IMG/VR virus record: IMGVR_UViG_648276650_000010
Coordinates: 1 to 19,602 of that record
Direction: 5' to 3' (one strand)
Length of the DNA: 19,602 nt
From: a virus
Lineage: Duplodnaviria > Heunggongvirae > Uroviricota > Caudoviricetes
Made by a program: the position numbers and the translations under genes. Shown piece after piece: positions 1 to 18,654 of this stretch. The notes under the pieces were generated by a model. The model saw only the letters and a list, made by a program, of their open reading frames with translations. It did no database searches and was not told where the DNA came from. The number at the start of each line of letters is the position of its first letter. Within the stretch, counting starts at the first letter, position 1.

Positions 1-2400
1 TTACATCTTGCGTCTGTTGCTGTCTTGAACAATAGCCGCGATGTTCTGTTGCTGACGTTTTAATTGTTCAGCAAACCAACGCTGATCAGTAACATTCCCT
101 GAAACGTGAATACTTGCGTCGATTTTTGTTTCGCCTCCTGTTTTCTGATTATCTAAGAAGTCTTTCAAGTCGCCGTTTGTTCTTTCATCAACGACACGTT
201 CGCCACCATCAAGCAGCCATGTCCCTTCTCTTGGAACATTAGAAATACCATCGTGAGCCATACCAGTAAGATTCACTGATTTCATCTGCATGACTTGTCC
301 GATAACTCTTGCATAACTTGAAGCAGCCAGAGCGTAACCTAAAGGACCAGGATATTTTGCCATTGAAGCAGTTGCTGATTCATAAGCGTTTAACATACCG
401 CTTGCGATTGCTGTTCCTTTTTCAACTGCAAACATTGCTTGAGCAGCTTTAGAGTTTTCACCAGAAATACCGGCTATAACTGCACCCATACCAGAAGCAA
501 AACCGTTATACATCTGGAGTTTTGTCTGAATCTCAGTGAAAGTAATTGCTTTCGATTTAACCGCATAAGCTTGCTCAAGACGCTGTTTCTGTTTGAGATA
601 ATCTTCATAAGAAATCAATTGTCCGTCATATAGCTTTTGGTTCTGTTCTTGCATCTTCTGAAATTGTTCTTCCAACATTTTCTGTTGAATAGCCATTTTT
701 TCTTCATCAGTTGCAAAACCGATAGCATCAAGATTTTTAAGATTAGACATATTACCATCGCCAGCAGTCGCTTTAATTGCTTCAAGACGTTGCTGATGGT
801 CTTTCTGAATAGCTTCTAACTGAGAATTATATTCTTTCTGACCGATAAGCGATTGGGCTTTCTTAGCTTCGAGTTGTTCAAGTTGTTGTTGATATACGAT
901 TTCAAGACTCGACGTAATAGCACCGATTTCTTCAGGACTTGCCATAAGAGTTTGTTTGAATTCTTTGTTTGAATTCTCAAAAAGCATTTTACGACGTTGA
1001 TTTGCCTGTGTAGCGCTGATTATTCCTTTCTTTTCAAGTTCGTCGATTGTTTCAACAGCTTCTCTAACTTTACTGACTTGACTAGAAATAGTTCTGCCTT
1101 CTTGACTGAGAATTGCAGCATCAAGACTGGAAAGATTCTGTAACGCTGTCTGACGCTCTTGCATCATCTTATCATAAGCAGCTTTAGCTTCTCTTGCGGC
1201 TTGTTCCTGTAAGCGTTCCTTTTCTTTCTGAGCAGCTTTAGCTTCTCTTGCTATTTTGTCAGCTTCGCGTTTAGCTTTTTCAGCTTCTTTCTTAGCGTCT
1301 TCGGCAGCTAATGCATCTTTTTTTCTTTTCAGATCTGCGGCAGTTTTAGCATTTGCTTGCTGTAAACGAAGATTTTCATCAGCTTTGATTCTTGCTGCGG
1401 CAATATCTTTCTGAAACTTTTCTTCATCTGCAATTGCTTTTCTACGTTTAGCAAAACCCGCATTAGGCATCCATTCGCCCATTTTGTTAACAGTCGCTTC
1501 GGCAGCCCAATCAGAAAGAGCAGCATCAGGACGCAACGTGCTTAATGTTCCCATGAAGTCTAAAAAGTTACTTGCTGTCCAATCTTTATTAGCAATTTCG
1601 AACAGGTCGTTCATTTTCTTAACTAACGGACTCATAACGTTAACAGTTAGATTATCCAGATTGACGGTTAACGTTTTCATGTTTTCGTCGAATTCTTTAT
1701 ATTCTTTTGCTGTTTCGTTTGTGATATCAACAGAACGATTGTTAATAGCGTTTAATGCGTCTTGAGTTGAACCGTATTTTTCAAGAGTTGAAATCAAATG
1801 TGAAGCATCAGAAGCCATTGACTCCATTCCGTTCACGATTTCAGCTTGACTTGCACCAGCAGCTTTCAGGTCATAATAAGTCTGAACAAGCGCTTTAATA
1901 CCGCCTTGGGCATCGTTGACGTATTGTGTGTACTGTTCAAGACCAATACCCCATTCTTTGAGGTCGTCTGCAATACCGCCATGACCTTCTCTGAATGAAT
2001 CGCCAAGTTTATCTAATGTGTCTTTGTTTAAATCTCCGAAACGGTCAATCTCCATACCTGTTTCGCGAAATTCATTTTTAAGTTGTTGCAGATATTCAAC
2101 TGAAAGACCAGTTGATGTAGAGAGTTGATTGAGTTCTCTCGTTTTTTCTAACGCGGTATTAAGAACAGCTACACCTGCACCTGCTGCCATTCCTGCAATC
2201 CCCAGAGCTTGCATACCCTTGGACATTCCTGCAATACCTGAGATTCCGTTGTTGAGATTATTCAACGGTCCTGTCATATTACTAAAAAGTCCATTAGCTA
2301 CTGAATCGAGTTCATTCAGTTTCTTCATGGACTTGTCAATAGAAATTGATAGGCCTTTGTTATCTCCGTTAATCTCGACGTCATAACGTGATTTAGCCAT
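1..2400 (-). CDS. tail tape measure protein, 799 aa
   Basis: ATG at 2400-2398 preceded by a GGTG Shine-Dalgarno; stop TAA at 3-1. Protein is helical with an EAK/Q-rich low-complexity core and Gly/Ala-rich hydrophobic segments near both ends. Lies immediately downstream of the G/T chaperone pair and overlaps the T-frame stop by 8 nt. Assigned from composition and synteny. Confidence 0.75.
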   Translation of the reverse strand: MAKSRYDVEINGDNKGLSISIDKSMKKLNELDSVANGLFSNMTGPLNNLNNGISGIAGMSKGMQALGIAGMAAGAGVAVLNTALEKTRELNQLSTSTGLSVEYLQQLKNEFRETGMEIDRFGDLNKDTLDKLGDSFREGHGGIADDLKEWGIGLEQYTQYVNDAQGGIKALVQTYYDLKAAGASQAEIVNGMESMASDASHLISTLEKYGSTQDALNAINNRSVDITNETAKEYKEFDENMKTLTVNLDNLTVNVMSPLVKKMNDLFEIANKDWTASNFLDFMGTLSTLRPDAALSDWAAEATVNKMGEWMPNAGFAKRRKAIADEEKFQKDIAAARIKADENLRLQQANAKTAADLKRKKDALAAEDAKKEAEKAKREADKIAREAKAAQKEKERLQEQAAREAKAAYDKMMQERQTALQNLSSLDAAILSQEGRTISSQVSKVREAVETIDELEKKGIISATQANQRRKMLFENSNKEFKQTLMASPEEIGAITSSLEIVYQQQLEQLEAKKAQSLIGQKEYNSQLEAIQKDHQQRLEAIKATAGDGNMSNLKNLDAIGFATDEEKMAIQQKMLEEQFQKMQEQNQKLYDGQLISYEDYLKQKQRLEQAYAVKSKAITFTEIQTKLQMYNGFASGMGAVIAGISGENSKAAQAMFAVEKGTAIASGMLNAYESATASMAKYPGPLGYALAASSYARVIGQVMQMKSVNLTGMAHDGISNVPREGTWLLDGGERVVDERTNGDLKDFLDNQKTGGETKIDASIHVSGNVTDQRWFAEQLKRQQQNIAAIVQDSNRRKM
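1177..1251 (-). repeat. 21-nt exact direct repeat (agcagctttagcttctcttgc) at 1177-1197 and 1231-1251 inside the tape measure gene
   Basis: Read directly from the sequence. Copies are 54 nt apart (in frame) and encode the duplicated peptide AREAKAA within the EAK-rich region. Confidence 0.8.
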
Positions 2401-3099
2401 TATTCACCTTTTTTTGTTGTTTCAGTCTAACTTTGTCTAACAGAGCAGGGTCGAACATCGATTCAACAGCTTTCTTGCGTTTAAGCTCCTGTTGCTCTTT
2501 CTCTTTTTCGATTTCCTCTTGAGACTTAAACACAGAATCTTTAATAAGCAGGTGATCTTTCATGTTGAGCTTTTTCCTATATTCTTTTGTAAGATTAGGA
2601 TTATTAGCTTCGATAGTGTGGACCAAACGTGCTTGATAGAAATCGTTATAGACAGGACCTTGAGGTTCAATAAACGAGTCGAAAAACCATAGTTCGTAAT
2701 ACATCATCACGGACATCTGTTGAATTTCATCGTTAGATAATCCGCGACGTAGCATTGTTCTATACTGAAATGATTTAGCCCAGTTCTGTCTTAGTTCTTT
2801 TCCAGAACGTCTGATTTCTTACTGAGAATACTGGCAGTAGAAACAGCACTAGCAAGAGTTGAACGAACAGTGGTATAAAGTTTCTGAACTTGAGCGATTT
2901 CTTTAAAAACAGGAGTTCCGTCTTCGTGTTGAATACAATTCAGAATCATTCGGTCGTTACGTTCTTCTGTGTTTTCATTTTTGAAATAGAATTCACCGAA
3001 TTCAGATACGGTCATAGGACGAGCATAGAATTTAAAGCCGTTGATTTCTACTGGTTCGCGAGAAGGCGAAAGACTTGCTAACATTTCATCGAAATTCAT
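2393..3099 (-). CDS. predicted G-T fusion chaperone made by -1 programmed ribosomal frameshift
   Basis: The -1 frame is open from a TAA at 2821-2819 down to the stop at 2395-2393, overlapping the last ~8 codons of the G frame. The T-frame stop overlaps the tape measure start by 8 nt. The frameshift itself is inferred; the slippery site is non-canonical. Confidence 0.5.
2791..3099 (-). CDS. tail assembly chaperone, gpG-like, 102 aa
   Basis: ATG at 3099-3097 with an AAGGGA SD-like element; stop TAA at 2793-2791. Sits directly upstream of the tape measure gene, and a -1 frame ORF overlaps its 3' end (classic G/GT arrangement). N-terminal segment VEINGFKFYARPMTVSEFGEF resembles the lambda gpG N-terminus as I recall it. 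Confidence 0.65.
   Translation of the reverse strand: MNFDEMLASLSPSREPVEINGFKFYARPMTVSEFGEFYFKNENTEERNDRMILNCIQHEDGTPVFKEIAQVQKLYTTVRSTLASAVSTASILSKKSDVLEKN
2794..2821 (-). promoter_or_regulatory. candidate -1 frameshift window; best heptamer GGAAAAG at 2797-2803
   Basis: This is the only stretch where the G frame and the T frame are both open. Minus-strand sequence is AGT AAG AAA TCA GAC GTT CTG GAA AAG AAC TAA. It contains the A-AAG lysine slippery motif but not a canonical X-XXY-YYZ heptamer. Confidence 0.35.
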
Positions 3100-3133
3100 T
3101 TTTGTTTCCCTTTGTTGAGTTTTCTTTTATTTA

Positions 3134-3162
3134 TGAAAAAGGGAGCGCGAGGCTCCCTTTTG
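3134..3162 (-). terminator. intrinsic terminator (bidirectional-looking) after the 105-aa gene
   Basis: Stem GGGAGC (3141-3146) pairs with GCTCCC (3152-3157) around a 5-nt loop. Flanked by AAAAA (3136-3140) and TTTT (3158-3161), so it is followed by a U-tract on either strand. Located between the stop at 3163 and the G start at 3099. Confidence 0.65.
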
Positions 3163-3480
3163 TTATTTCCATTGAAAGAAATATCCGTACATTCTGAAAC
3201 CTTTGTGGATATATTCAATCATTCCTAAGTTCTTCGCTTCGGTCTCAAAAAATGGACCTTGCAGTCGAACTGTCTGTCCTAATTTGAAATGACAATTAGG
3301 TTTTTTCTTCTGTGTTGAAACAATAAAAACGTTCTTATCGTTGAACAGATATTTTTTAATTCGCTTATCTTTGATGTGTTCGCAACCGTAAGGAACAGTC
3401 ATTGACTCGGGATTAATCTCGTTAACGTAGATGTCGGCAAGTTCGTCTAATCTGTAAGTATCAAAATCGTGAATGTTCAT
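3163..3480 (-). CDS. hypothetical protein, 105 aa
   Basis: ATG at 3480-3478 with an AGGAGA SD; stop TAA at 3165-3163; followed by a terminator. No recognisable motif. Confidence 0.55.
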   Translation of the reverse strand: MNIHDFDTYRLDELADIYVNEINPESMTVPYGCEHIKDKRIKKYLFNDKNVFIVSTQKKKPNCHFKLGQTVRLQGPFFETEAKNLGMIEYIHKGFRMYGYFFQWK

Positions 3481-3497
3481 TTGTTCTCCTTTTGACT

Positions 3498-4040
3498 TTA
3501 TTTAGTACCCGCAACACGCTTAACGGTTTTGAATATATCGTCAGAGATTTGATTCCATGAACCCAGAGTTTTTCTTCTGTGTTGATTTTTCTTGAATACA
3601 GCAATTAAACGACGGTCTTGCTTTTTAACGTTAGTTTTAATGAGGATCGTTCGAGTTACGCCATCTTTTTTTTGCTTGACAGCTTCAAGATTATTTCTTG
3701 ATTTCAAGTTAGGAATGTTACCGAATTTGTTCTTTGAACCTCTTACACCAGTTGGAACAAACTTGTTAATTCCTTTGTTATCATCAATTAACGGAGCAAG
3801 ATAATCAGCCTGCTTGTCTTTGATGAATATTCTATTTCGTGACCCGTTCTGATCGTATCTGAAACTGAAACCTACTGCGTTCTTAGTGAAATTAACTGGT
3901 CCATCGACTCGTCTGTTGATTTTTCTTTGCAACTCAACAGAAGCGAGTTTAGACGCTTTGGTTACTTTCTTACTGAACACGTCAGATTCTTTGATTCGCC
4001 ATTTTTCAAGGTCTTTCATAACATCTTTTGCTTTTGCCAT
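3498..4040 (-). CDS. hypothetical strongly basic (Lys/Arg-rich) protein, 180 aa
   Basis: ATG at 4040-4038 overlaps the stop of the upstream 65-aa ORF (TAATG coupling). Composition suggests nucleic-acid binding; too basic to be a typical tail tube protein. Function unknown. Confidence 0.6.
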   Translation of the reverse strand: MAKAKDVMKDLEKWRIKESDVFSKKVTKASKLASVELQRKINRRVDGPVNFTKNAVGFSFRYDQNGSRNRIFIKDKQADYLAPLIDDNKGINKFVPTGVRGSKNKFGNIPNLKSRNNLEAVKQKKDGVTRTILIKTNVKKQDRRLIAVFKKNQHRRKTLGSWNQISDDIFKTVKRVAGTK

Positions 4041-4237
4041 TAGTTCACTCCTGACATCAGAAGCGTCCCAAATGTTTTTATCTGTTCTTCGCTGATAAGA
4101 ATCATTTTAGGTGCTTTAATATCGAAAGCTTGCAGAACAGGAACAGCAACAGTGTTATAAGTTATAGTAACGAGAAATAGAACAATAAGATAATCTTTAG
4201 CGTGTTTTGCCAATGCTTGGAGATATTTCATTTTCAT
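4040..4237 (-). CDS. small membrane protein, 65 aa, one predicted TM helix
   Basis: ATG at 4237-4235 with a GGTG SD 5 nt upstream. Hydrophobic segment YLIVLFLVTITYNTVAVPVL. Overlaps the 3' end of the endonuclease gene by 41 nt and is coupled to the downstream 180-aa gene. Confidence 0.45.
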   Translation of the reverse strand: MKMKYLQALAKHAKDYLIVLFLVTITYNTVAVPVLQAFDIKAPKMILISEEQIKTFGTLLMSGVN

Positions 4238-4673
4238 ATTTCACCTTTATTTGGTTTGAGTAGACTTTTTCAAGCTCCTTTTTCGTTTTAAGGTTTGAAC
4301 CTGTAATAGCTTTCATCTCAGAAAGATTTTTTCGAGAGAACGCCTTCTTTAAATCAGGAATAAGTTGTGGATGCGTAGGATTGTCTGAGTAGTCTTTTTC
4401 AAGATACTGAACAAGATTCTTCAAAAACTCGATGTAGTCAATTTTCCCATCGAGACCCGAACGTTTAAACTGATGTTTTATTCTGCCCTCTAGGACGTTT
4501 GCTTGAGCGATTAATAATCCTCTGCATCTGCCTGCGTTAGAGCCTGTTAATATATGGTCATGGTCAAGATGGGCTTTATTAACTTCATGAATCTTTATGC
4601 CAGTTAAAGCACAAAGACCTTTTTGCTTTTGAAAGAGTTCTTGCTTATAAATCGGAATCTCTTTTCTTTTCAT
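4197..4673 (-). CDS. T4 endonuclease VII (gp49)-like nuclease, 158 aa, with degenerate zinc-binding site
   Basis: ATG at 4673-4671 with a GAGG SD; ATGA overlap with the upstream 94-aa gene. The segment HLDHDHILTGSNAGRCRGLLIAQANVLEGRIKHQFKRSGLDGKIDYIEFLKNLVQYLEKDY aligns closely with my recollection of T4 endo VII (HLDHDHELNGPKAGKVRGLLCNLCNAAEGQMKHKFNRSGL...). The catalytic Asp/His/Asn/Glu positions appear retained, but three of the four Cys Zn ligands are replaced (by T, I, A). Confidence 0.8.
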   Translation of the reverse strand: MKRKEIPIYKQELFQKQKGLCALTGIKIHEVNKAHLDHDHILTGSNAGRCRGLLIAQANVLEGRIKHQFKRSGLDGKIDYIEFLKNLVQYLEKDYSDNPTHPQLIPDLKKAFSRKNLSEMKAITGSNLKTKKELEKVYSNQIKVKYENEISPSIGKTR

Positions 4674-4954
4674 TTTCCTCTTAGAACTGCTAGGTCGATA
4701 TCTAGCTTTGCTGTTCTTCCTTCTAAATTCTTCAAATCAGATTTGACCTCTCGAAATTCATCCTGTTGTCGTGTTATATCGCTTATAAGCGAAGCATCTT
4801 TTGCGTCATTAACGGCTATGCTTTTTTCGATGTCTGAGAAACGTTTCTCAAGGTCAATTCGTTTTTCATTGTTTGATTTAATTTCGGCATAAACCCAAGC
4901 CAAGAAACCTCCTAGAGCACCCAAGATGGAAATGATCAGTGCTATATCGACCAT
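4670..4954 (-). CDS. membrane-anchored coiled-coil protein, 94 aa
   Basis: ATG at 4954-4952 with two AAGGAG-type elements upstream. N-terminal hydrophobic helix (IALIISILGALGGFLAWVYA) followed by a charged heptad-like region. Function unknown; i-spanin-like or exclusion-like topology. Confidence 0.6.
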   Translation of the reverse strand: MVDIALIISILGALGGFLAWVYAEIKSNNEKRIDLEKRFSDIEKSIAVNDAKDASLISDITRQQDEFREVKSDLKNLEGRTAKLDIDLAVLRGK

Positions 4955-4999
4955 CTTGAATCTCCTTTTTAAAAGACCTCCTTGTCTTTATTTAGAACG

Positions 5000-7900
5000 T
5001 TATTGTTGTTTACTGATAAAGTAAACTGCTCTTGCTGCGGTCGCATGATTCAAGTCAGCACCGTAACTCAAATCAACAGCTTGTCCCGCATAGATAATGC
5101 CTGTACCACCGTTTGAACCACTCATTGCACTGGTAACTGTTCTTACGATTTCTTGACCGTTCGACATATTAATCCATGCAGTTCCGTAGCCCCAAGCACC
5201 ACCGGAATAAGTTCTGCCTGAAATCGAAAGGTTTGGAATAGAAATTACTCTGTTCCAGTTAACAGCAGGAATATGAACTGTTGTCCACGGATCTATATGA
5301 CCCATTTTGATAACGTCACCTTCAATTCTGTCAGCGTATACAGTTCCTGTGAAATAACCTGAACCGCCTCTGATTTCACCTGCGAAATAACCAGAATCTG
5401 CTTGAATGTTACCTCTGATATTAACGTTTTGGAAAGAAGCCCAACCGTCTTTTCTGATTGTCCAACCTTGAGTACCACCGGAAGGGAACCAGTTATCAGA
5501 AGATATTTCATAAGCAATCTGTGCTGAACCGATCTGAGCATTACCAATTTTCGCAGTAGTAATCGCACCGTTTTCAATCTTCGCGTTGTTAATAGCACCG
5601 TTTTGAATCTTAGCGTTGTTAATAGAAGCATCTGCAATCTGTGCTGAACCGATAGAAGCATTACGAATCATTGCAGAATCCATATAAACTCTGTTATCAG
5701 CGACCATAAACGGAGCAACAGCACCCGCAGGAGTATTGTTATTCGTTATAGCGATTTTATCAGCGTTAAAAACAATACTAGACTGTTTTGAACCGTCAGG
5801 ATTCTTATTAGCCAGCATACTGATACCAGCAACAACACCGTCGGCATTAGTCTGAACTGCCCATTTGCTATTAATCGTTCCTGTTAAGTCGTCAACGCTT
5901 GCTTTTGATTCTTGACTAACTGTTGCAATAGCTGTGTTTGTTTCAGCTTTCAATTGATTAATTGAACTTGCGGTTGCTTGTCTATCATCAGCTTGAGTTT
6001 TTTCAACTTTCGTAATAGCCGAGTTAAGTTTTCCATCAAAGTTAGATTCTTGAATACTGATAGCCTGATTGATAGCGCCATTAGTTTCATTAGTAATCTG
6101 AGTATGAAGTTCGGTGTTTTTCGTCGTGATAGTCTGATTTAATTCAGTAGTAACTTTTTGCTCGGATGCTGTAACTTTCGTATCAGTGTATTTGTTAGCG
6201 AGGTCTAATGCTTCATCGATAGCACCATCAACACGTTTATCCAAATCAAGCAAATCGTTTAACTGTTCTTTCATATCGTCAGTCCACGGAATATCCCATT
6301 TCATATCGATAAACTTCGATTCTGACCAAGTAATCTGGTCTTGTCCGAATACGTCATACCAAGCTGAACGAACATAGAATTGACCATCTTCTAATGGAAA
6401 ATTATCTAAGAACGGACTTGAACTTGAATAAACGTGAACAATTTCATTAAAACTCTGGTCTTTCGCAATATGAACGATTGTGCCTTTGAAGTCAGGAACT
6501 TCAGGCTTATTATCGCGTGGGTCATTCCAAGAGCACATCAGCATTCCAGGACCATTCGAAGCTGTGAAACCTTGAATAGCAGGAGCTTGATTGTTCTTAA
6601 CAGTAATAACAGCAGGATCTGACTTCATACCAGCGTGACCGTATGCAGTAACAGAAACTTTCAATTCACGACTCAGACCATTACCCAAGTTCATATTAAA
6701 GTCATATACAAAACCTAAGTCTTTAGTCTTGTAAATTACAGGACGCTGACCTTCAATTTTGATTTCGTAATATTGAAAAACTTCACCGAATGTCTGTAAC
6801 GTGTCGTCAACATAGAATTTCTGTGCGCTCTGGTCGTCCCAGGCGAATTCAAATTGAGTCTTGTTAGTGGTGTATTGATTTTCAACTGCGTTCACTAGGT
6901 GCAGTCCTGTAACGACTGGTAAGTTATACATAACCTCAGGGTTAACGTTATTGACATAAACCCAATCTGAACGATACACAACACCAGAAGCACAAACACG
7001 AATATCAAATTTCTGATTAGGGTCAAGACTCATAATCAAGAAATAATCGCCTGATGTGAAACCTGCTTGAATCCAAGAGTTCTTACCAGCAAGACTATAC
7101 TGAATATAATAACCTGCGCGATTATAATCAGGTTCAGACGTCCATTGAACTTTCAGAGTTCTTCCTAAAGCTGTTTCAGCAACTGCTTTAACTGTCAGAT
7201 TCTTAGGAGCAATCAGAACAGATTTATTAGGAATGTTGCTTCCTGTGTTATCAGGGTCTTTCGCGTAGTCAAGATTGGTATAAACTTCTTCGATATATTC
7301 AGAAGCAGTAATAGTAACGATACCAGCAGCACCTTTATTCATCGAACGATCGATATTAGTAATACGCCATAATGAATTCACAAGTTCCAGTTCAGAGAAA
7401 TTAACTCTGATAACATCCCAGACCTGTGCGGTATAAGCATCAGCAGTTGAAAAACTAATAACTTGCTTTAACAGAGATTTGTTACGTTCGATTGAAGCAA
7501 TTTTATCCAACTGAGATTTTGATTTCACGAATCTGTAACTGATATCTTTAGCGATAATACGTTTATCTTTCGCGATTGTTCCATCATTTGTTACGTCAGA
7601 CGGATAACGCAGAACTTGGTCAGAATAGTCAATCGACGGATCTTGATATTTCACGTTCAGAGTATTGTAATAATTCTCAGAACCGCCATCGTTTAAGCTA
7701 ACAGTACCAGCGTTAATATTATCTTCGTTGAAGTCATATTGAACAACATCAGGTCCATCGATTCTGCATGTTACTTTACCGAAAGTCTCTGTGATAATAC
7801 CGTTAAATGCACCTGCAAGCTGAGTTAAGTTTTCTTTGAATGAACCGTTCGGGTCAGTTGCACCATCAGAAAATAAACTGTTCAGTTTTGCATATCGAGC

Positions 7901-8689
7901 AGCTTCTTTAAAACTATCAAGGTCGATTTTATCAATCTGAATTCCAAGACCGTATCTATCATTTGTTAGATAATCAACAATCTGACTCGGACCGTTGTTC
8001 GAGGAAACGCGTTCTCCTGTGTTCAGATCTGTAATCAAACGTCCTCTAACGTCAACAGATACTTGACTGTTAGGTTGCAGGATATCAGCTTGGTTTTGAA
8101 GGTCTGAGTTACGTTTGCGCATAACAACACAACAAGCAGCGATGTTATTACCAGTAGCAGAATCAGGCCAGCCAGCATCTGAATTTCCTAGATATTTCTG
8201 AGCAAGAGTAAAAACGTGACCGTATGGCTTACCAGTTGAGAATTCAACTTCAACATATTGCTGATATTCAGCAGCGATTGAACCTTTCGGAAGAACACCG
8301 TCTTTATAAACGCCATCAAGTAAGATTTTCTGATTATCCATATAAAGGTTTTTGAAGCTATCAACTTCACCTTCACAGATTGCAAAGATCTGAACCAAAT
8401 ATGTCGTATCAACGCCAACAGCTTTCCAAACGTTAATCGTACCTGTACGCTGTTCACCATAGATAATAGGAATAACACTTGATGGATCTGACGTTGTTCC
8501 TAATGTCGTTGCTGTGTCTGTGCTGTTAAATCGGGGAACGTTCTGCGCCATCTGAGTTGACATCAAAGCAGAAACAGCAGCAACAGCGACACCAATACCA
8601 ATTGCCAAAGCAAGAGCAGCACCCGCAGCGTAAGCAGCAGCAGCCGCGGAAGCACCTGCGATAATTGCACCAATAGCTACAATAGCCAT
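5000..8689 (-). CDS. lambda J-like tail tip / host specificity protein, 1229 aa, with hydrophobic N-terminal extension
   Basis: ATG at 8689-8687 overlaps the upstream stop (TAATG). The region PIIYGEQRTGTINVWK...YLVQIFAICEGEV matches the conserved N-terminal motif of J-type tip proteins; the C-terminal region (FMVADNRVYMDSAMIRNASIG..., NIRGNIQADSGYFAGEIRGG...) resembles the lambda J C-terminal receptor-binding region as I recall it. Confidence 0.75.
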   Translation of the reverse strand: MAIVAIGAIIAGASAAAAAYAAGAALALAIGIGVAVAAVSALMSTQMAQNVPRFNSTDTATTLGTTSDPSSVIPIIYGEQRTGTINVWKAVGVDTTYLVQIFAICEGEVDSFKNLYMDNQKILLDGVYKDGVLPKGSIAAEYQQYVEVEFSTGKPYGHVFTLAQKYLGNSDAGWPDSATGNNIAACCVVMRKRNSDLQNQADILQPNSQVSVDVRGRLITDLNTGERVSSNNGPSQIVDYLTNDRYGLGIQIDKIDLDSFKEAARYAKLNSLFSDGATDPNGSFKENLTQLAGAFNGIITETFGKVTCRIDGPDVVQYDFNEDNINAGTVSLNDGGSENYYNTLNVKYQDPSIDYSDQVLRYPSDVTNDGTIAKDKRIIAKDISYRFVKSKSQLDKIASIERNKSLLKQVISFSTADAYTAQVWDVIRVNFSELELVNSLWRITNIDRSMNKGAAGIVTITASEYIEEVYTNLDYAKDPDNTGSNIPNKSVLIAPKNLTVKAVAETALGRTLKVQWTSEPDYNRAGYYIQYSLAGKNSWIQAGFTSGDYFLIMSLDPNQKFDIRVCASGVVYRSDWVYVNNVNPEVMYNLPVVTGLHLVNAVENQYTTNKTQFEFAWDDQSAQKFYVDDTLQTFGEVFQYYEIKIEGQRPVIYKTKDLGFVYDFNMNLGNGLSRELKVSVTAYGHAGMKSDPAVITVKNNQAPAIQGFTASNGPGMLMCSWNDPRDNKPEVPDFKGTIVHIAKDQSFNEIVHVYSSSSPFLDNFPLEDGQFYVRSAWYDVFGQDQITWSESKFIDMKWDIPWTDDMKEQLNDLLDLDKRVDGAIDEALDLANKYTDTKVTASEQKVTTELNQTITTKNTELHTQITNETNGAINQAISIQESNFDGKLNSAITKVEKTQADDRQATASSINQLKAETNTAIATVSQESKASVDDLTGTINSKWAVQTNADGVVAGISMLANKNPDGSKQSSIVFNADKIAITNNNTPAGAVAPFMVADNRVYMDSAMIRNASIGSAQIADASINNAKIQNGAINNAKIENGAITTAKIGNAQIGSAQIAYEISSDNWFPSGGTQGWTIRKDGWASFQNVNIRGNIQADSGYFAGEIRGGSGYFTGTVYADRIEGDVIKMGHIDPWTTVHIPAVNWNRVISIPNLSISGRTYSGGAWGYGTAWINMSNGQEIVRTVTSAMSGSNGGTGIIYAGQAVDLSYGADLNHATAARAVYFISKQQ
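5514..5653 (-). repeat. intragenic tandem and direct repeats in the J-like gene
   Basis: Exact 20-nt direct repeat gcaatctgtgctgaaccgat at 5514-5533 and 5634-5653 (120 nt apart, in frame), with 30-nt-period near-repeats at 5561-5620 between them. Encodes a periodic motif (IGSAQIA ... NNAKIQNGAINNAKIENGAITTAKIGNAQ). Confidence 0.8.
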
Positions 8690-9105
8690 TATTTTCTCCT
8701 GTTAAAAATTAATTCAAAATTAAAATCGTTGACGTTTATCAGTTGATATTTATTTTCATGTTCAACTAATGCTCTATTATTAAAAACGATAGATGCAACG
8801 TAATAGACACGGTTTTTATGTTTTTTCTTAATTAAGATAACCGAGCCTGTTTCTATAGTTTCTGATTTCTCAAGATGCGTTTCACACGCTTCGAGAACGT
8901 TATTAAAACCAGTTAGCTCTTTGCAAATCTTGAGACCTTCAGGAATACTCGTGTATTTGTCTTTTAATTTGTCTGTGTATTCAGTAGCACAAACAAGGTC
9001 GATATATTCAGCAACAAGGATATTACAGTCGTTTTGACCGAAAACGTGTTGCTGATTGATATAGCGGTTAAGTAATTTTGATAAGTCAGCTTGAAATTTA
9101 AACAT
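8689..9105 (-). CDS. hypothetical Cys/His-containing protein, 138 aa, translationally coupled to the J-like gene
   Basis: ATG at 9105-9103 with a GAGGTGA SD; stop overlaps the J start. Motif GQNDCNILVAEY plus downstream His residues could fit a papain-like fold (speculative). Position suggests a tail tip assembly role. Confidence 0.5.
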   Translation of the reverse strand: MFKFQADLSKLLNRYINQQHVFGQNDCNILVAEYIDLVCATEYTDKLKDKYTSIPEGLKICKELTGFNNVLEACETHLEKSETIETGSVILIKKKHKNRVYYVASIVFNNRALVEHENKYQLINVNDFNFELIFNRRK

Positions 9106-9132
9106 GTTTCACCTCTGACTTTATTTAGAGCC

Positions 9133-9161
9133 AAAAAAAGACCCCTTGCGGAGTCTTTTTA
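9133..9161 (-). terminator. intrinsic terminator after the 158-aa gene
   Basis: On the minus strand: GACUCC-GCAA-GGGGUC (6-bp stem with one U-G wobble, GNRA loop) followed by seven U. Stem at 9140-9155, A-run at 9133-9139 on plus. Begins 7 nt after the stop at 9163. Confidence 0.7.
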
Positions 9162-9162
9162 A

Positions 9163-9639
9163 TTAATCACTTGATGTCAAATCAACAACACCAGAAACAA
9201 CAGGACCACCATCAACACTCAGTGTCATTGTCAGACCTTGAACTTCTGATTCACCGCCATTATGAACAGCGCTTGACAAGAAGCCGTTATAAACTTTTGC
9301 AACACCCAGTTTTTTAGTAGCATCAATCCAATAAACGATTTTAAACTGACCACGTTTACCATCTTCCGCAAGCTTAATCAGAACATCATGAACGCTTTCT
9401 GGAATATAGTTAACGGTCAAGTCGATATCAGGAACAGAGCCACGACCAACCAGTTTACGGGAGTATTTGTGAGAGAAGTTAGGAGCTGTAATAACTTCGC
9501 GTTCAATACCCGTAGAAGGGAATGCACCAGTTTCAGGAATTTCAACAAACTTTTCTGAATTCAGATCGGTGTTTGCAATTTCTGAGTTATAGAACACACT
9601 GACGTAAGAGCCAGCAAAAATATCAAATTTGTCTGCCAT
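9163..9639 (-). CDS. hypothetical acidic beta-rich protein, 158 aa, probable virion structural protein
   Basis: ATG at 9639-9637 with an AGGAAA SD; stop TAA at 9165-9163. No TM segment or signal peptide. Bracketed by terminator-like hairpins on both sides (stand-alone transcription unit). Fold and function not assignable from sequence alone. Confidence 0.55.
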   Translation of the reverse strand: MADKFDIFAGSYVSVFYNSEIANTDLNSEKFVEIPETGAFPSTGIEREVITAPNFSHKYSRKLVGRGSVPDIDLTVNYIPESVHDVLIKLAEDGKRGQFKIVYWIDATKKLGVAKVYNGFLSSAVHNGGESEVQGLTMTLSVDGGPVVSGVVDLTSSD

Positions 9640-9680
9640 TTTTAATTTCCTATTTGAGTTAATATAGTTTATTTAGCAAA

Positions 9681-9699
9681 GGGGATTTCTCCCCTTTTT
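9681..9699. terminator. terminator-like hairpin directly after the tail fiber stop
   Basis: GGGGA (9681-9685) pairs with TCCCC (9690-9694) around a 4-nt loop. On plus it is followed by TTTTT (9695-9699); on the minus strand only by UUU, so minus-strand termination is probably partial. Confidence 0.5.
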
Positions 9700-9700
9700 G

Positions 9701-12700
9701 TTATTTAGCTTCAAGTTCTTTAACGCGAGCACTTAATTCCTTGATAGCATTAACCAGCAACGCGTTTACAGCAGCAGAGTTAACACCAAGAATTTCGTCA
9801 GGTCCGAAAGAACTAACAGCTTCTGGTAATACTTCTTTCAGTTCTTGAGCAATAATACCTGCTTCACGAACTTCGAATGAATATTCAGTTTTGACTAAAT
9901 CAGATTTCTTATCGTATACGTAACCAGTAAGTTTCTCGACTTTATCAACTGCGTTTTCAATTTCTTCAAAGTTCGATTTCAGACGTTTATCAGAAGTGCT
10001 AACCCATTGGATCGCATTTGCTGTTCCATTACCGAGGAATAGATAGTCTGCACCACCAATGTGAAGTGCAGCCTCGGGAGCAGAACTACCCGGATTATAA
10101 ATGTCCATCGCAGCACCGTATTCTGTGCCCCAATGAACATGTTTCCAGATATTAATACATTTATCACGAGTCTGAGCTTCAACAATCATTCCCGCAGGAC
10201 GATCACGCCACGCTGACCACTGCGGCCAACCGTCAACGACACCTTGAATCATCGCATTGCTTGCCCCGGTTCTAACGTTTCCAACATAAACACCGCGAGA
10301 CTCATTATGGGTGTTAATCGTAATTGACCGATCAATTGTCAAACCAGCTGTGTTAAAGGTTGCGATTTGAATACCATTAGTAAAAATGCTTAAGTTTCCG
10401 TCCGTAACTTGTCGAATACCTGTATCGTTATCACCAAACGCGATTGAGTTTCCACCTAGTACGTTGTCCGTGTTAATACCAAAACTTGTTAAACGATTTG
10501 TTTCAACAGAAGGAGTATTAATTTTTCCAGGAACAGCAAAACGACCATCGATATCAAATTCATAATTAGCCATTTTACCGAACGTCGATTCTTCTTTCGT
10601 CCCAACACGAAGAATTCCTTTGCCCCATGAATTAGCTGGTCCTCTAATAGTTCCTAATTCAACAACAGTAGAGAATCCGTGTCCTACGGAAACAGAGTTC
10701 ATCGAATATCCGGGATAATAATCACTTTCACCAGCAACTGCTCCGAAGTTAATCTGCATAGGAGCATTTTGTCTCCATTGATTAGCGTAAGCATGATCAT
10801 TGGTTGCTGCCCATCTTGCACCATCAATTTGAATTGTATTATGCTGAATATCCATCGCGGTATTAGTACCAGTCTGAACCGTCACGGATCCGTTAGTTCT
10901 AAGAGTAACACCAGATGACGTAGAGAAATCATTTCTCATATTCTGAGACCAGACAATATCGAGATTCTCACTTGTCTTGCCAAGAATCCAGGTATTATTG
11001 CGACCGTCCATATTGCCAGACATATAACTTGCCTGATTCGACGCAGGAATATTCAACTGAATAGCATTAGATTCGCCGTTGACAGAAACACCACTTGCAA
11101 GATTCAATCGACCATTGGTGTTTAATGAACCCATCCAATATTCAGGAGTATCACCATGAAACCAACATATAGAGTTATCCAGCCTATCGTCAGGATGATT
11201 AGCCATTGCCAACTCATGATAAATGGATCCAGCACCAACGGCTCTAACTTTTCTTAAATGATTTGATTGTTGCTCAGGAGTGTTCCAGTCGGGTAAGCTT
11301 TCCGAGTCATACCATCCGTAAGGCTTATTATTATAAATCGTTTTATAGAAACTTGCAGGGCCAGCAACACCAAGACCTTCTTTAGTATCAATATAAGTTC
11401 TGCCTGAACCTCTCAGATAATGATTATATTTTCCACCATTAACTAATCCGAAATAAGTCGTGGCGTCACCAATGTTATTACCGTCGGTTGTCGTATCGAT
11501 ATTAATTAATGAATAACCTTCAGGAGCCATCAGATTCGAATCACCATCATCACTTCTGAAACGGAAATGAGTTTTTCTATTAAAGTAGTTTTCAGATCCT
11601 GCAATAGAAGCTGTTACAACGTTATTTGAATAGAAGTTTAACCATCCGTCTTCTCTCCATTTAAAACCAGTGTCGGAATCACCAATCGCGATAGAGTTTA
11701 AACCCAGTGAATTTCCAACGGCAAAGTTGCTTGCAACGGACATTAAAGGAGTTGTTACTGCATCAGTGATTCTAGCTTGACCTGAAATATCAATTGACAT
11801 TCCTCTGCCTGTTTTTCCCCAAGTCATGGTCATTAGATCTAATGCGTCGGTTCCTTCGTTAGCATCACGACGAAATAACAGTCGATCATCCGTATCCGTT
11901 GCGTATGCAATTTGATGAATAGTCTTTGAAGTTCTGCCGTGGTTTTCAATACTCAGAACATCACCGTTATTACCAGCAGGTGTAACTTTCAAAGTTCCTG
12001 CGTATACATTACCAGCAGCATGAACAGAAGGAACAGTTAAGTCGCCAGTCATCGTGTCGCCAGCTTTATTAACTTTGGTGTCAATCATGTCTTTCAGAGT
12101 CTGATTATCAACAGTCAAACGGTCATTAACTGCTTTAATCTTTTCGTCAGCATCAGCTTTATTCGCATCAACTTTCGTATTAATAGCCGTGTCGTTCTGG
12201 TCAACTTTTGAATTCAGATTATCAACGCGAGTGTTAATAGCAGCGTCGTTAGCATCAACTTTCTGTTCGAGTTTCGTCAGGTCAGCACTTGAACCTGTTT
12301 GAACTTTGCTGATTTCAGAATCAACGTAATCTTTACGCGTAGCGCTATCAGGAGCAACAGGAGCAGCAGGCAAAGATAACTGACCATTACCGTTAAGCAC
12401 GAAGTCAGAACTCTCTCCTGTACCTTTTCCTTTCGCTACCGTAACACGAAGTTCACCTTTAGAGTCTGTCTGAGCAGGAGAACTAATACGTGCTTTTGCT
12501 TTGTCGTGTTCATCAGCAAAAACAATATCGCTTTTATCAAGATTTTTTAAAGTCAGATTAGAATCGGATTCAATATCACTTGCTTTAATTTTTCCAGTAA
12601 AGGTCTGACCGCCTTCAACAACAGCATCAGCACCATTACCGATGTTAATAACAGCGTCACCGAATTTAGTAAAAATCTTTTTATCGGCTAAGTTAATAGC

Positions 12701-12784
12701 GATTTCACCATCAAGCATGTTTTTCGCTTCTGGCTTTCTTCCGGCGACGTCTGTTCTATAATGTTTAACTTTATTATTTGCCAT
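9701..12784 (-). CDS. tail fiber protein, 1027 aa, with C-terminal intramolecular chaperone (peptidase S74-type) domain
   Basis: ATG at 12784-12782. N-terminal fibrous repeats (VDxNDxAINTxVD) and a DTMTGDLTV motif typical of phage fibers. C-terminal WVSTS-DKRLKSNFEEIE...YVYDKK...EAGIIAQELKEVLPEAV...NAIKELSARVKELE matches the auto-cleaving chaperone domain seen in endosialidase-type tailspikes and L-shaped fibers. Confidence 0.8.
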   Translation of the reverse strand: MANNKVKHYRTDVAGRKPEAKNMLDGEIAINLADKKIFTKFGDAVINIGNGADAVVEGGQTFTGKIKASDIESDSNLTLKNLDKSDIVFADEHDKAKARISSPAQTDSKGELRVTVAKGKGTGESSDFVLNGNGQLSLPAAPVAPDSATRKDYVDSEISKVQTGSSADLTKLEQKVDANDAAINTRVDNLNSKVDQNDTAINTKVDANKADADEKIKAVNDRLTVDNQTLKDMIDTKVNKAGDTMTGDLTVPSVHAAGNVYAGTLKVTPAGNNGDVLSIENHGRTSKTIHQIAYATDTDDRLLFRRDANEGTDALDLMTMTWGKTGRGMSIDISGQARITDAVTTPLMSVASNFAVGNSLGLNSIAIGDSDTGFKWREDGWLNFYSNNVVTASIAGSENYFNRKTHFRFRSDDGDSNLMAPEGYSLINIDTTTDGNNIGDATTYFGLVNGGKYNHYLRGSGRTYIDTKEGLGVAGPASFYKTIYNNKPYGWYDSESLPDWNTPEQQSNHLRKVRAVGAGSIYHELAMANHPDDRLDNSICWFHGDTPEYWMGSLNTNGRLNLASGVSVNGESNAIQLNIPASNQASYMSGNMDGRNNTWILGKTSENLDIVWSQNMRNDFSTSSGVTLRTNGSVTVQTGTNTAMDIQHNTIQIDGARWAATNDHAYANQWRQNAPMQINFGAVAGESDYYPGYSMNSVSVGHGFSTVVELGTIRGPANSWGKGILRVGTKEESTFGKMANYEFDIDGRFAVPGKINTPSVETNRLTSFGINTDNVLGGNSIAFGDNDTGIRQVTDGNLSIFTNGIQIATFNTAGLTIDRSITINTHNESRGVYVGNVRTGASNAMIQGVVDGWPQWSAWRDRPAGMIVEAQTRDKCINIWKHVHWGTEYGAAMDIYNPGSSAPEAALHIGGADYLFLGNGTANAIQWVSTSDKRLKSNFEEIENAVDKVEKLTGYVYDKKSDLVKTEYSFEVREAGIIAQELKEVLPEAVSSFGPDEILGVNSAAVNALLVNAIKELSARVKELEAK

Positions 12785-12796
12785 TTTCTTTATCCG

Positions 12797-13822
12797 TTAA
12801 AATACTCCTGCGTCTAAGGTTTCTCCTAACGCTACACAATTAATCTCTAATGGCGTTGGTTTATTACTTGGAGAATAGACTTCTTTGCCTTTGACCTTGA
12901 CAGAAGTTGAGTTAATTTCATTACTATTTAGAGCCAAGATTTCACCTTGTGGCGCAGAAATCTTTTTACGAACGTTCAGATATTCCTGAATAGTCAAAGA
13001 TCCTTTGAGTTCTCCACCAGTAATAGGCAAAGCATTAATATCTTCAGGAGTTGGACGTTCAAGTTCTGTATAGACTTTGACCCACGGAGATTCAGTAACA
13101 GTTTCACCGCTTTGTTGTTTGTTTCTGATTCTGATGCTTGGATTACCGACTGACGAACCAATAAGCTCCCAACCTTGACCATCAGGATGCTGAATAGCCA
13201 TAGCAGACGTGCCAGAGTTATAAGGGTTATCGCTGTTTGTTGCATCGACTGTTACACATCTGTTACCAGTTAATAATCCTAAGTCTTTAACGCCTGCGAT
13301 TTCTTCTGTACCAGCACCAATACCATAATCGCCAACGTTTAACGGAACTGAGAATTCAGCAAAACCTGTAAACAACTGACCATCAGGAGAAAGATTAAAA
13401 GTTGTTGTAACGACTGAGTTAGCCGAACCTGATGTTTCTTTCTTCGTTACATAAGCATTAAAAATATGATAAAGACCAGCATCATTATCTTTCTTTGTTT
13501 CTCCATCGATAACATAAAGACTTCTGAATCTAAGGAGTTTCTTTTCCATAAGAGCTTCATCAAGCAACTGATAAACTGGGTCAGAACTGTCTTCAAATAA
13601 GCTTATTGAAGTGTCGTTAATTGTTACGTCACCTGAAAGTTTCGTTGTGAAATCGGTTCTGTAATCTTCTAGTGTCTGAACTTCTTTTCTAAATCCGATA
13701 ACAGGGAATGCAGCCAGTTTATCAGTGCTTACATAACCTGGGTCGTTATATCCTGGGATTTCAACGATTAGCGGATTAACTGAAACTCTGACGTTATTTC
13801 CTACAAAAATATCGTTTGTCAT
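12797..13822 (-). CDS. major tail protein, gpV-like, with C-terminal Ig-like extension, 341 aa
   Basis: ATG at 13822-13820; stop TAA at 12799-12797. Position is right after the gpU-like gene. The segment NDTSISLFEDSSDPVYQLLDEA...LLRFRSLYVIDG resembles the lambda V pattern [23 protein letters not shown]...AYKIRFPNG as I recall it; C-terminal ~100 aa is beta-rich and Ig-like. Confidence 0.6.
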   Translation of the reverse strand: MTNDIFVGNNVRVSVNPLIVEIPGYNDPGYVSTDKLAAFPVIGFRKEVQTLEDYRTDFTTKLSGDVTINDTSISLFEDSSDPVYQLLDEALMEKKLLRFRSLYVIDGETKKDNDAGLYHIFNAYVTKKETSGSANSVVTTTFNLSPDGQLFTGFAEFSVPLNVGDYGIGAGTEEIAGVKDLGLLTGNRCVTVDATNSDNPYNSGTSAMAIQHPDGQGWELIGSSVGNPSIRIRNKQQSGETVTESPWVKVYTELERPTPEDINALPITGGELKGSLTIQEYLNVRKKISAPQGEILALNSNEINSTSVKVKGKEVYSPSNKPTPLEINCVALGETLDAGVF

Positions 13823-13829
13823 TTTAGTC

Positions 13830-14228
13830 TCACATTAAGTATTCGAAAGTTAAAATTATTTGTGCGCTAACATGACCATTTGATGCTTCACTATCATAAT
13901 CAGTGAAGCTCGAACTTGGATAAATCTTATCGATTTTAAATGGGATAAGTTTTTCATGATTAGCTTTAATAGAAATTAAGTCGTAAACGGCTTTGTGAAC
14001 GCCTGTTTCGCTTTTCTCTGAGAAAATATCAATCGTAATACTAAGAACACTTGCAAGTTTCGATTGCAAACCGATTCGCGTATATTCTTCTGTCATTCCT
14101 GGAATCATTACTTGAACAGGTTCTTTAACACCAGTTGTGAAAGCGTTTTTGACGTATTTCAGATTAAGTTCTTTAACGATTATTTCTTCCAGAGCGCGTT
14201 TAATTCCTAAACGTGGCAGATTAGTCAT
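13830..14228 (-). CDS. tail terminator protein, gpU-like, 133 aa
   Basis: I place the start at the internal ATG at 14228-14226, which overlaps the upstream stop by 8 nt; the ORF-track start at 14306 would overlap the upstream gene by 86 nt. C-terminus DYDSEASNGHVSAQIILTFEYLM resembles the lambda gpU C-terminus (DY..DDAG..SADLTYVITYEM) as recalled. Confidence 0.6.
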   Translation of the reverse strand: MTNLPRLGIKRALEEIIVKELNLKYVKNAFTTGVKEPVQVMIPGMTEEYTRIGLQSKLASVLSITIDIFSEKSETGVHKAVYDLISIKANHEKLIPFKIDKIYPSSSFTDYDSEASNGHVSAQIILTFEYLM

Positions 14229-14517
14229 AGAATGATGTCTCCTGTTCGCCTTTAAATGCCAGATAACAATTAGCAAGTCCTGAACCATCATTAACAAGAT
14301 ACGCAATGGTATACAGAATCTCGTTTAATAGAACTTCATCTTCTTGCTTAACTTTATTGATATCAGCGGTTATATAGATTGTCTCGCTTACTTGTCCGTT
14401 ATCGTTGTTAATCTCAATTTCAACAATACCGAGTTCATCAGAATCGTTAATTTTGATTTTCTGTCCGAAACGAGTTAAGAAAGACTGTTTTTGTTTTTCT
14501 GAATATGGAAAAATCAT
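14221..14517 (-). CDS. head-tail joining (neck) protein, 98 aa
   Basis: ATG at 14517-14515 with an AAGGAGA SD; first gene after the capsid terminator. Small and acidic, in the position of a head completion/connector protein. No specific family assignable. Confidence 0.5.
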   Translation of the reverse strand: MIFPYSEKQKQSFLTRFGQKIKINDSDELGIVEIEINNDNGQVSETIYITADINKVKQEDEVLLNEILYTIAYLVNDGSGLANCYLAFKGEQETSFYD

Positions 14518-14552
14518 GTTGTCTCCTTTTTATTATATTTAGTCCAGAAACG

Positions 14553-14576
14553 AAAAAAGGACTCCCGAAGGAGTCC
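14553..14576 (-). terminator. strong intrinsic terminator after the major capsid gene
   Basis: On the minus strand: GGACUCC-UUCG-GGAGUCC (perfect 7-bp stem, UUCG tetraloop; stem 14559-14576) followed by UUUUUU (14553-14558 on plus). Lies about 50 nt downstream of the capsid stop. Confidence 0.85.
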
Positions 14577-14597
14577 TCTGATTATTCAGCAGTTTCA

Positions 14598-14627
14598 GCT
14601 TTCGCTTTCGCTTTTGCTTTTGCTTTT
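14598..14627. repeat. five tandem hexamers (GCTTTC x2, GCTTTT x3 on plus; AAAAGC/GAAAGC on the mRNA) immediately 3' of the capsid stop
   Basis: Read directly from the sequence. Starts 1 nt after the stop codon (14629-14631) and ends before the terminator hairpin. Confidence 0.8.
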
Positions 14628-14628
14628 C

Positions 14629-16533: not shown

Positions 16534-16548
16534 TACCAGTCCTCTGTT

Positions 16549-16580
16549 GGAGCGTCTTTCGACGCTCTTTGTTTTTCTGA
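16549..16580. promoter_or_regulatory. stable stem-loop in the portal-capsid intergenic region, terminator-like only in plus orientation
   Basis: GAGCGTC (16550-16556), loop TTTC, GACGCTC (16561-16567), followed on plus by TTTGTTTTT. On the minus-strand mRNA it forms a GAAA-loop hairpin 17 nt upstream of the capsid SD with no U-tract after it. Confidence 0.45.
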
Positions 16581-16592
16581 ATGTATTTAGTG

Positions 16593-18143: not shown

Positions 18144-18634
18144 GATGGATTCGTGAACCTCGCTTTAATAGTAACAATCGGAGATTTACCGTTTGCCATT
18201 TGTTCTGACTTAATCAGATTTGCTAAGTTAGCTAAAAGTCGTTTTCGAGCCATAAGCAGCGAATCAAGCGTTTCATAAACGAATGATTTACCGTTAATAC
18301 TCATTTGTTGAATAGCTTCTTCGTTACTTGTCAGACGATACTGAATAACTGTATCGATATCGTTAATCATTTCTCTGAGTTGTTCTCTTTTCGTTTTTGA
18401 AACGAATGGTGATTTCACTTTGATAATGCTGTTACTGATAAGCGCACCTTCATAGAGAACAACAACAGAAAAAGTTCCTTCGATAAAATCTGATGTGTCC
18501 ACCGAGATATTCGCTGGACAATCAGTTTGAGAAAACAATTTAGTTTCAGTTGAGCCTATGGAGACTGTTGCACCTTCAGGATTATAAACAGCGAGTTTTT
18601 CACCGATGTAAATTTCTGAATTTGATTTTTGCAT
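18140..18634 (-). CDS. gpW-like head-tail joining protein with ~85-aa N-terminal extension, 164 aa
   Basis: ATG at 18634-18632 with a GGAGAA SD; lies between terminase and portal as lambda W does. The C-terminal ~75 aa (INGKSFVYETLDSLLMARKRLLANLANL...) resemble lambda gpW ([23 protein letters not shown]...) as recalled. The N-terminal beta-rich half has no counterpart in 68-aa gpW. Confidence 0.55.
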   Translation of the reverse strand: MQKSNSEIYIGEKLAVYNPEGATVSIGSTETKLFSQTDCPANISVDTSDFIEGTFSVVVLYEGALISNSIIKVKSPFVSKTKREQLREMINDIDTVIQYRLTSNEEAIQQMSINGKSFVYETLDSLLMARKRLLANLANLIKSEQMANGKSPIVTIKARFTNPS

Positions 18635-18654
18635 TGAGTTCTCCTTTCTTATAT

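Follow-up and report, generated by a model that had tools for sequence, protein, structure and literature searches.

Introduction

[quoted passage not shown] Here we analyze the N-terminus of a 1229-residue J/pb3-like tail-tip hub and central-fiber protein, which is encoded by a single open reading frame (ORF; positions 5000–8689, minus strand) in a 19,602-nucleotide stretch of a virus of the Caudoviricetes (IMG/VR record IMGVR_UViG_648276650_000010, positions 1 to 19,602). This whole stretch is referred to as the window. The protein begins with 45 uncharged, hydrophobic residues, and sequence comparison relates its N-terminus to gpI.

In lambda, the helices H1 and H2 of gpI are predicted to be transmembrane helices. 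They are resolved in the closed tail tip and have been proposed to form a channel in the outer membrane; in the open state on LamB nanodiscs, gpI is visible only from residue 167 on and the density of H1/H2 is gone (PMC11101478). The trimer of gpI is shaped as a tripod in the tip lumen, under the C-terminal coiled coil of gpH, the tape measure protein, whose C-terminus it holds (PMC10721106, PMC12617516), and the strand of gpI is woven into the hub domains of gpJ. Iyer, Burroughs and Aravind described in 2006 TAPI–TAPJ fusions in prophages, as well as NlpC/P60-only versions of TAPK, and took the hydrophobic part for a glycine-rich linker (PMC1779556).

In the megatrons RcGTA g15 and R4C gp16, the iris or penetration domain comprises residues 1–46 and 1–45, respectively. 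Its first helix, contributed by three subunits, closes the tail channel like an iris, and a role in pore formation or penetration of the outer membrane has been proposed (PMC7296036, PMC10276861). In T5, the internal plug of pb3, located just upstream of a strand equivalent to the IPVVYG strand discussed below, refolds to a hairpin that is anchored in the nanodisc, and for the tape measure protein pb2*, insertion of a hydrophobic stretch of 46 residues has been proposed (PMC10038345). The JBD30 paper contains nothing on such an element. The kind of element analyzed here is already known from lambda gpI, the megatron N-terminus, and the note on fusions of 2006.

Hydrophobic N-terminus of the J-like protein

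Residues 1–50 of the 1229-residue ORF correspond to positions 8540–8689 of the window (minus strand). A preliminary description of the window, made from the letters alone, had pointed to a long hydrophobic segment in the first ~45 residues. The segment is real, and its letters are exactly as quoted there. Residues 1–45 (8555–8689, minus strand), which span two membrane-helix lengths, comprise 20 Ala, 6 Ile, 5 Gly, 4 Val, and 3 Leu (Ala and Gly together, 56%), and lack D, E, K, R, N, Q, H, and P altogether. Basic residues begin with R53, acidic residues with D58, and Cys with C105. A 45-residue run free of these eight residue types did not arise in any of 10,000 shuffles of the same protein, the longest shuffled run being 34 residues.

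The best 19-residue Kyte–Doolittle mean is 2.4 in the N-terminal segment and 1.24 anywhere past residue 60. Simple sums on the Hessa scale are about +0.6 kcal/mol for residues 1–19 and about −0.8 kcal/mol for residues 25–43, compared with +1.5 and +2.4 kcal/mol for H1 and H2 of lambda gpI. On this scale, the hydrophobicity of residues 1–45 is marginal to good for a membrane helix and at least equal to that of gpI H1/H2.

A Sec or lipoprotein signal was considered and rejected. On inspection of the sequence, there is no K or R before residue 53 and hence no charge in an n-region, the run of 45 residues compares with an h-region of 7–15 residues, and there is no lipobox, the first Cys being residue 105.

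The start of the protein is well defined. A Shine–Dalgarno sequence, AGGAG (8696–8700, minus strand), is separated by a 6-nucleotide spacer from the ATG at 8687–8689, and this ATG overlaps the TAA of the upstream gene (TAATG), indicating translational coupling. Two further E. coli prophage copies, with nucleotide identities of 86.6% and 77.6%, keep the same ATG and AGGAG, and in both the NCBI annotation has the 'phage tail tip fiber protein' begin at this codon. In codons 1–45, the comparison with strain L3Cip3 gives 15 synonymous and 5 non-synonymous differences, and that with strain PSS-15 gives 13 and 5; the amino-acid replacements are conservative (for example, V/A, L/I, and A/G). These observations show that the segment is translated and conserved and that purifying selection acts on it. 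In-frame ATGs are present at residues 43 and 47, and the preliminary description had allowed for a start in this region, in which case the N-terminus would be an annotation artefact and the hydrophobic codons an untranslated leader. However, the first ATG has a strong AGGAG at a suitable distance, whereas no such sequence stands before Met43 or Met47. In addition, the stop/start overlap, the conserved amino-acid pattern with its synonymous excess, and the presence of the same architecture in homologs down to 32% identity and in more than 100 50%-identity cluster representatives contradict a downstream start, which we regard as extremely improbable.

Relationship to lambda gpI

A profile of 107 positions (A2), built from 34 N-termini of the family including that of this protein, was compared with all PDB sequences. 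The top match is the lambda tail tip assembly protein I, gpI (8IYK; residues 109–210; E=1.2e-5). It is followed by gpI chains covering residues 134–223 (9E7M; chain residues 6/7–79; E=9e-5), a 'Putative phage tail assembly protein' (25VF; residues 103–190; E=1.4e-3), and pb3 of DT57C and T5 (residues 261/262–293; E ~0.02), while unrelated proteins start at E ~0.08. A local profile that includes the N-terminus of this protein matches gpI residues 110–211 with E=1.9e-5. In hhalign, A2 matches the gpI family alignment with a probability of 95% and E=4e-8 in 34 columns over the strand motif.

This motif, (V/I)(L/I)PVxYGExRVG, is expected ~25–40 residues past the hydrophobic stretch and is present here in residues 72–91 (8417–8476, minus strand; VIPIIYGEQRTGTINVWKAV). 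According to the alignments, hhalign, and the PDB profile search, it matches the gpI strand and residues 263–280 of T5 pb3. In alignments A2 and A3, residues P74 and G78 do not vary and Y77 hardly does.

A concatenate of gpI (100–223) and gpJ is colinear with a longer profile of the family, the I|J junction falling at about residue 93/94; pieces of gpJ alone give no significant match to this longer profile. Three parts follow in the same order. First, gpI 100–156 corresponds to residues 1–45, both Gly/Ala-rich and uncharged. Second, the polar stretch APKARTPRIQTTDNGKQNT of gpI corresponds to QNVPRFNSTDTATTLGTTSDPSS here. Third, the gpI strand VLPVLYGEMRVGSRVV corresponds to VIPIIYGEQRTGTINV here. 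The second part lies in the Ser/Thr-rich linker of residues 46–70 (8480–8554, minus strand; TQMAQNVPRFNSTDTATTLGTTSDPS), which the profile alignments place at the position of the plug region of gpI (residues 159–175; PMC11101478) and of the T5 pb3 plug (PMC10038345). From this colinearity, residues 46–70 are probably equivalent to the gpI/pb3 plug region, and residues 1–45, by composition, shuffle test, and conservation, would be the equivalent of gpI H1 and H2.

Domain scans are silent on the N-terminus because no Pfam model covers the C-terminal part of gpI. Lambda_tail_I (PF06805) spans just gpI residues 14–97, the ubiquitin-like domain. Neither the N-terminus nor any of nine family members has a gpI-related match or PF06805 in Pfam scans, while gpI itself scores 1.1e-28. 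The profiles give the module a sequence definition that Pfam lacks. As judged from sequence, the first ~94 residues of the J-like protein are homologous to the C-terminal half of gpI, comprising H1/H2, the plug, and the VLPVLYGEMRVG strand.

The rest of the protein is that of a tail-tip hub. Pfam Phage_Tail_Tip is found at residues 926–1021, the 1229-residue protein matches PHROG 31 ('central tail fiber J'), and a whole-protein phmmer search against the PDB returns C-terminal fiber domains only. In an AlphaFold 2 (AF2) model of residues 1–480, the predicted local distance difference test (pLDDT) is 85–92 for residues 70–480. Foldseek matches the model to T5 pb3 (E=1.3e-27, template-modeling (TM) score 0.70), lambda gpJ (7e-18), and RcGTA 6tba_8A (1.7e-16), showing that the body, as modeled, has the pb3/gpJ/megatron hub fold.

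Distribution of the segment in the protein family

We searched for homologs with a word index that included the low-complexity N-terminus, scoring the 8000 candidates that share most words. The segment is present in all eight homologs found, at identities from 100% down to 32%, and the architecture of a single 1229-residue ORF is kept in homologs. The protein of the Escherichia phage DCP80, at 44.6% identity, has the same 45-residue segment. DCP80 (PQ671644.1) is a 141-kb phage filed under Straboviridae/Gaprivervirus, yet it carries a siphophage-type gpI–J hub module; its DUF6950 ORF at 8460–8876 is unannotated. In E. coli 2021CK-01361 (NZ_CP107720.1, 3270930–3272230), an otherwise identical J gene is broken, giving a 339-residue product with a different tail, and is annotated as two hypothetical proteins. 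This prophage copy is probably defective.

For the family survey, a profile of five homologs with the N-terminus removed (A1) was searched against 1.84 billion cluster representatives, which yielded 6087 proteins at E<=0.001. N-terminal states were scored on the best 150 of the 6087, all with E below ~1e-30 and 145 of them full-length, the remaining 5 being fragments. Placement of the motif was guided by a hidden Markov model (HMM); a stricter regular expression found IPVVYG in just 58 of the 150. Among these 150, at least 32 hydrophobic residues precede the IPVVYG motif in 52, and one membrane-length segment (14–31 residues) precedes it in 66. The script left the motif unplaced in 7, six of which visibly have one such segment. 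Another 13 have an extension without a hydrophobic run, several of these being Lys-rich amphipathic helices, and in 7 the protein begins with the motif itself. Of the 145 full-length representatives, ~118–124 thus have one or two hydrophobic segments of membrane length ahead of the IPVVYG strand.

A hydrophobic segment is therefore the rule in this family and not a peculiarity of this protein. The preliminary description had seen in it an extension out of the ordinary, tip proteins being normally soluble, and had suggested a comparison with J homologs. That comparison finds the segment in most relatives, and the notion of something unusual falls away: because most of the family has the segment and lambda carries it on the separate gpI, it is a conserved module and not an add-on. 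In this family of ~6,000 hub proteins, most members begin with the same module, and one such protein is colinear with lambda I plus J. This explains why J-like proteins can look as if they had a transmembrane anchor, and annotators should be wary of trimming the start or calling them membrane proteins.

In some family members, a Lys-rich amphipathic helix, for example MGFLSKLFKGIGKLLKAVFKFIGKIF, takes the place of the hydrophobic N-terminus. Near two segment-less members that were inspected, there is no separate gene for a small gpI-like or hydrophobic protein, and DUF6950 lies directly upstream in both. The element can thus be lost. The representatives thus include two-helix, one-helix, Lys-rich amphipathic, and segment-less forms.

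Proposed role of the N-terminus

We consider it likely that the N-terminus is a fused gpI-C module, which acts as a plug in the lumen and is inserted in the outer membrane on triggering. The module would consist of the charge-free residues 1–45, the polar plug-type linker of residues 46–70, and the strand of residues 72–91 (VIPIIYGEQRTG). Three hydrophobic N-termini would lie in the lumen of the trimeric tail-tip cone against the C-terminal end of the tape measure, plugging the tube. On binding of the fiber to its receptor, the hub domains would swing open, and the N-termini would be freed towards the cell and would enter the outer membrane. This insertion would anchor the tube and form, or help to form, the first channel, and the tape measure and the DNA would then follow. 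From published structures of the relatives, we infer that the N-termini lie in the lumen, touch the tape measure, are freed when the receptor is bound, and insert into the membrane. The preliminary description had suggested membrane insertion during genome ejection. This agrees with the role proposed in the literature for the homologous or analogous elements of lambda gpI and of the RcGTA and R4C megatrons, and would extend to the present protein by analogy.

Several observations weigh against this interpretation. Even in lambda, RcGTA, and R4C, insertion into the membrane is only a proposal. In the comparison with gpI, significance comes from the strand motif (the 34 columns in hhalign), and the hydrophobic stretch, which is of low complexity, is equated by position, length, and composition and not by alignment statistics. 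The comparison of the R4C megatron N-terminus with the family N-terminal profiles is not significant (E=880 or no match). The AF2 model places helices at residues 9–30 and 39–45, but with pLDDT <50, as for residues 1–53 as a whole, and the geometry of a helical hairpin is not established; if the segment should fold only once the tip is assembled, a poor monomer model could be expected. Seven representatives do without the segment, and the element is thus dispensable for this kind of tail tip. Finally, Gly-rich hydrophobic stretches also occur in the tape measure (residues ~47–85 and ~630–705) and could do the membrane work.

[quoted passage not shown] The role as plug or tripod is the part actually seen in the structures of lambda, RcGTA, and R4C, and membrane insertion is not visualized in these relatives; the hydrophobic stretches of the tape measure and the family members without the segment point the same way. 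However, 45 residues without a polar residue, marginally to clearly competent for the membrane, exceed the need of a plug, and the variants in the family hold to membrane-helix lengths of ~20 or ~45 residues. In addition, lambda H1/H2 leave the ordered density on the LamB nanodisc, with the remaining chain pointing at the membrane, and the T5 plug demonstrably reaches the nanodisc. We consider a role as plug only to be unlikely.

Within the reading of an inserted gpI-C module, a more specific arrangement may be put forward. Throughout this large family, the element that breaches the outer membrane would be permanently tethered to the hub protein as its N-terminus and would come neither with a separate gpI nor with the tape measure. 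On triggering, three hairpins, with six helices in all, would make up a channel fixed in register with the tail tube. This arrangement is possible, but we put it forward tentatively and with some doubt. If it is true, the natural variants could be alternative solutions for different cell envelopes and would provide a comparative system for how non-contractile tails cross the outer membrane, and the chaperone/processing pair of ubiquitin-like and JAB domains, both absent here, would be dispensable for handling the hydrophobic helices.

Neighboring genes and prophage context

The gene directly upstream of the J-like gene (8689–9105, minus strand) encodes a 138-residue DUF6950 protein; its stop codon is the one that overlaps the J start. 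Our analysis shows that it has the NlpC/P60 fold, like gpK, and it occupies the position of lambda gpK and of the peptidase RcGTA g14/R4C gp15. Cys27, in an 'NDC' motif, is invariant in DUF6950, but the protein has no conserved His and no JAB domain. Because no His is conserved, DUF6950 may be non-catalytic. The joint absence here of JAB and of the ubiquitin-like domain fits the idea that both work as a pair.

This neighbor bears on another suggestion of the preliminary description, namely that the segment is a cleaved assembly signal. Such an assembly or targeting signal would serve only during construction of the tail tip, for example by keeping the protein at the inner membrane or bound to a chaperone. 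It would be removed before maturation or in its course, perhaps by the NlpC/P60-fold protein, whose gene is translationally coupled directly upstream. Processing of gpI by gpK was proposed by Iyer et al. (PMC1779556), and the lambda tape measure is itself cleaved in assembly. However, the processing proposed for lambda removes the ubiquitin-like domain, which is absent here, and not H1/H2; the equivalent helices are present in mature lambda virions, where cryo-electron microscopy resolves them in the closed state. The missing His and JAB domain of DUF6950 argue in the same direction. The segment also has no AxA-type cleavage context, in addition to the missing positive n-region and lipobox, and its 45 residues by far exceed the length of a Sec h-region. 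The suggestion thus finds no support, and we judge a cleaved signal to be very unlikely.

The tape measure protein, which by analogy with the lambda and T5 structures probably pairs with the hydrophobic N-terminus inside the tail lumen, is complete with 799 residues (1–2400, minus strand; PHROG tape-measure families, E=3.8e-70). Its C-terminal stretch DQRWFAEQLKRQQQNIAAIVQD looks helical by eye. The hydrophobic stretches of the tape measure could partner with, or duplicate, the N-terminus of the J-like protein.

The prophage occurs in E. coli, in Citrobacter, and in metagenomes. The order of genes on the minus strand is terminase, connector, and portal; a protease–capsid fusion; small ORFs; a Dit-like/fiber protein; a 1027-residue fiber with an S74 chaperone; a Dit-like 158-residue protein; DUF6950; the J-like protein; a 94-residue ORF; endonuclease VII; the putative tube and chaperones; and the tape measure. 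This order is non-canonical, as the genes of the putative tube, the chaperones, and the tape measure lie downstream of the Dit, J, and fiber genes. The tape measure gene is the last phage gene, and host genes of the YkuD/Ldt_C (ldtB-like), Fe_dep_repress (mntR-like), and MntS families adjoin. The end of the prophage therefore lies just beyond the start of the window.

A gene for a T4-type endonuclease VII lies within the tail module (4197–4673, minus strand), and in one E. coli genome a transposase of the insertion sequence (IS) type (DDE_3; 14008–15039 of that locus) is inserted just before it. The major capsid protein and an S78-type maturation protease are fused in one 634-residue ORF (14629–16533, minus strand). 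Two proteins have a tail-tube/Dit-like N-terminal domain (PHROG 158; 9163–9639 and 12797–13822, minus strand), the longer of which has fiber-like matches in its C-terminal part. The window yielded no gpL-like hub protein.

Comparison with known tail tips

For this prophage, the hydrophobic N-terminus is an expected feature and not a new mechanism. The prevalence of the segment across the family, and the sequence link between gpI and J-like proteins with an N-terminal transmembrane segment, may be useful but will not surprise specialists.

The N-terminus resembles the megatron iris or penetration domain in design. In RcGTA g15 and R4C gp16, as here, ~45 hydrophobic residues stand at the extreme N-terminus of a large J-like hub/fiber protein (R4C gp16, MATVLLAAAGGAIGTSLGGALFGISAAVIGQAVGGLIGQ), and the fold of the body (6tba_8A) and the proposed role are alike as well. 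In R4C, the peptidase gene gp15 also lies directly upstream, and the coding sequences of gp15 and gp16 overlap by one base, as in the present locus. The order DUF6950–J reproduces both the K-I-J order of lambda and the peptidase–megatron order of R4C. In contrast to the present segment, that of the megatron is richer in Gly, and only its first helix is ordered. RcGTA and R4C chains are absent from the results of the HMMER profile searches of the PDB.

T5 pb3 is the best structural match for residues 70–480. The IPVVYG strand aligns to pb3 residues 263–268, ~25 residues past the tip of the membrane-anchoring hairpin (residues 233–236), and T5 also has a hydrophobic stretch of ~46 residues that is thought to enter the outer membrane. 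However, the pb3 plug is internal, behind ~260 residues (hub domain I and an insertion), whereas its putative equivalent is N-terminal here. Because the sequence match begins at pb3 residue 263, the first ~260 residues of pb3 have no counterpart in this protein, which thus departs from the pb3 pattern of a four-domain (I–IV) single-chain hub with an internal plug. The T5 plug also refolds to a β-hairpin and not to helices, and the long hydrophobic stretch of T5 is on the tape measure and not on the hub protein.

The closest relationship is to lambda gpI (PDB 8IYK, 8XCG, and 9E7M). Both have, in the same order, a Gly/Ala-rich uncharged stretch of 45–55 residues, a polar linker, and a strand of the form (V/I)(L/I)P(V/I)xYGExR(V/T)G. 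By eye, an aromatic residue in the middle of the stretch is closely followed by Gly in both (AAYAAG here, AAWGAA in gpI). In addition, an NlpC/P60-fold gene lies upstream and the J body downstream. In lambda, however, gpI is a separate 223-residue protein between K and J, whereas its counterpart here is the N-terminus of the J-like protein; the ubiquitin-like domain (PF06805) is absent here, and the upstream peptidase-like gene is without JAB.

The TAPI–TAPJ fusions (PMC1779556) likewise join a gpI-type to a J-type protein, and they include variants with a neighboring NlpC/P60 protein without JAB. Those fusions, however, were described as carrying the ubiquitin-like domain. This uncharacterized member of the family thus has a variant architecture, in which the C-terminal part of gpI, without the ubiquitin-like domain, is fused to J.

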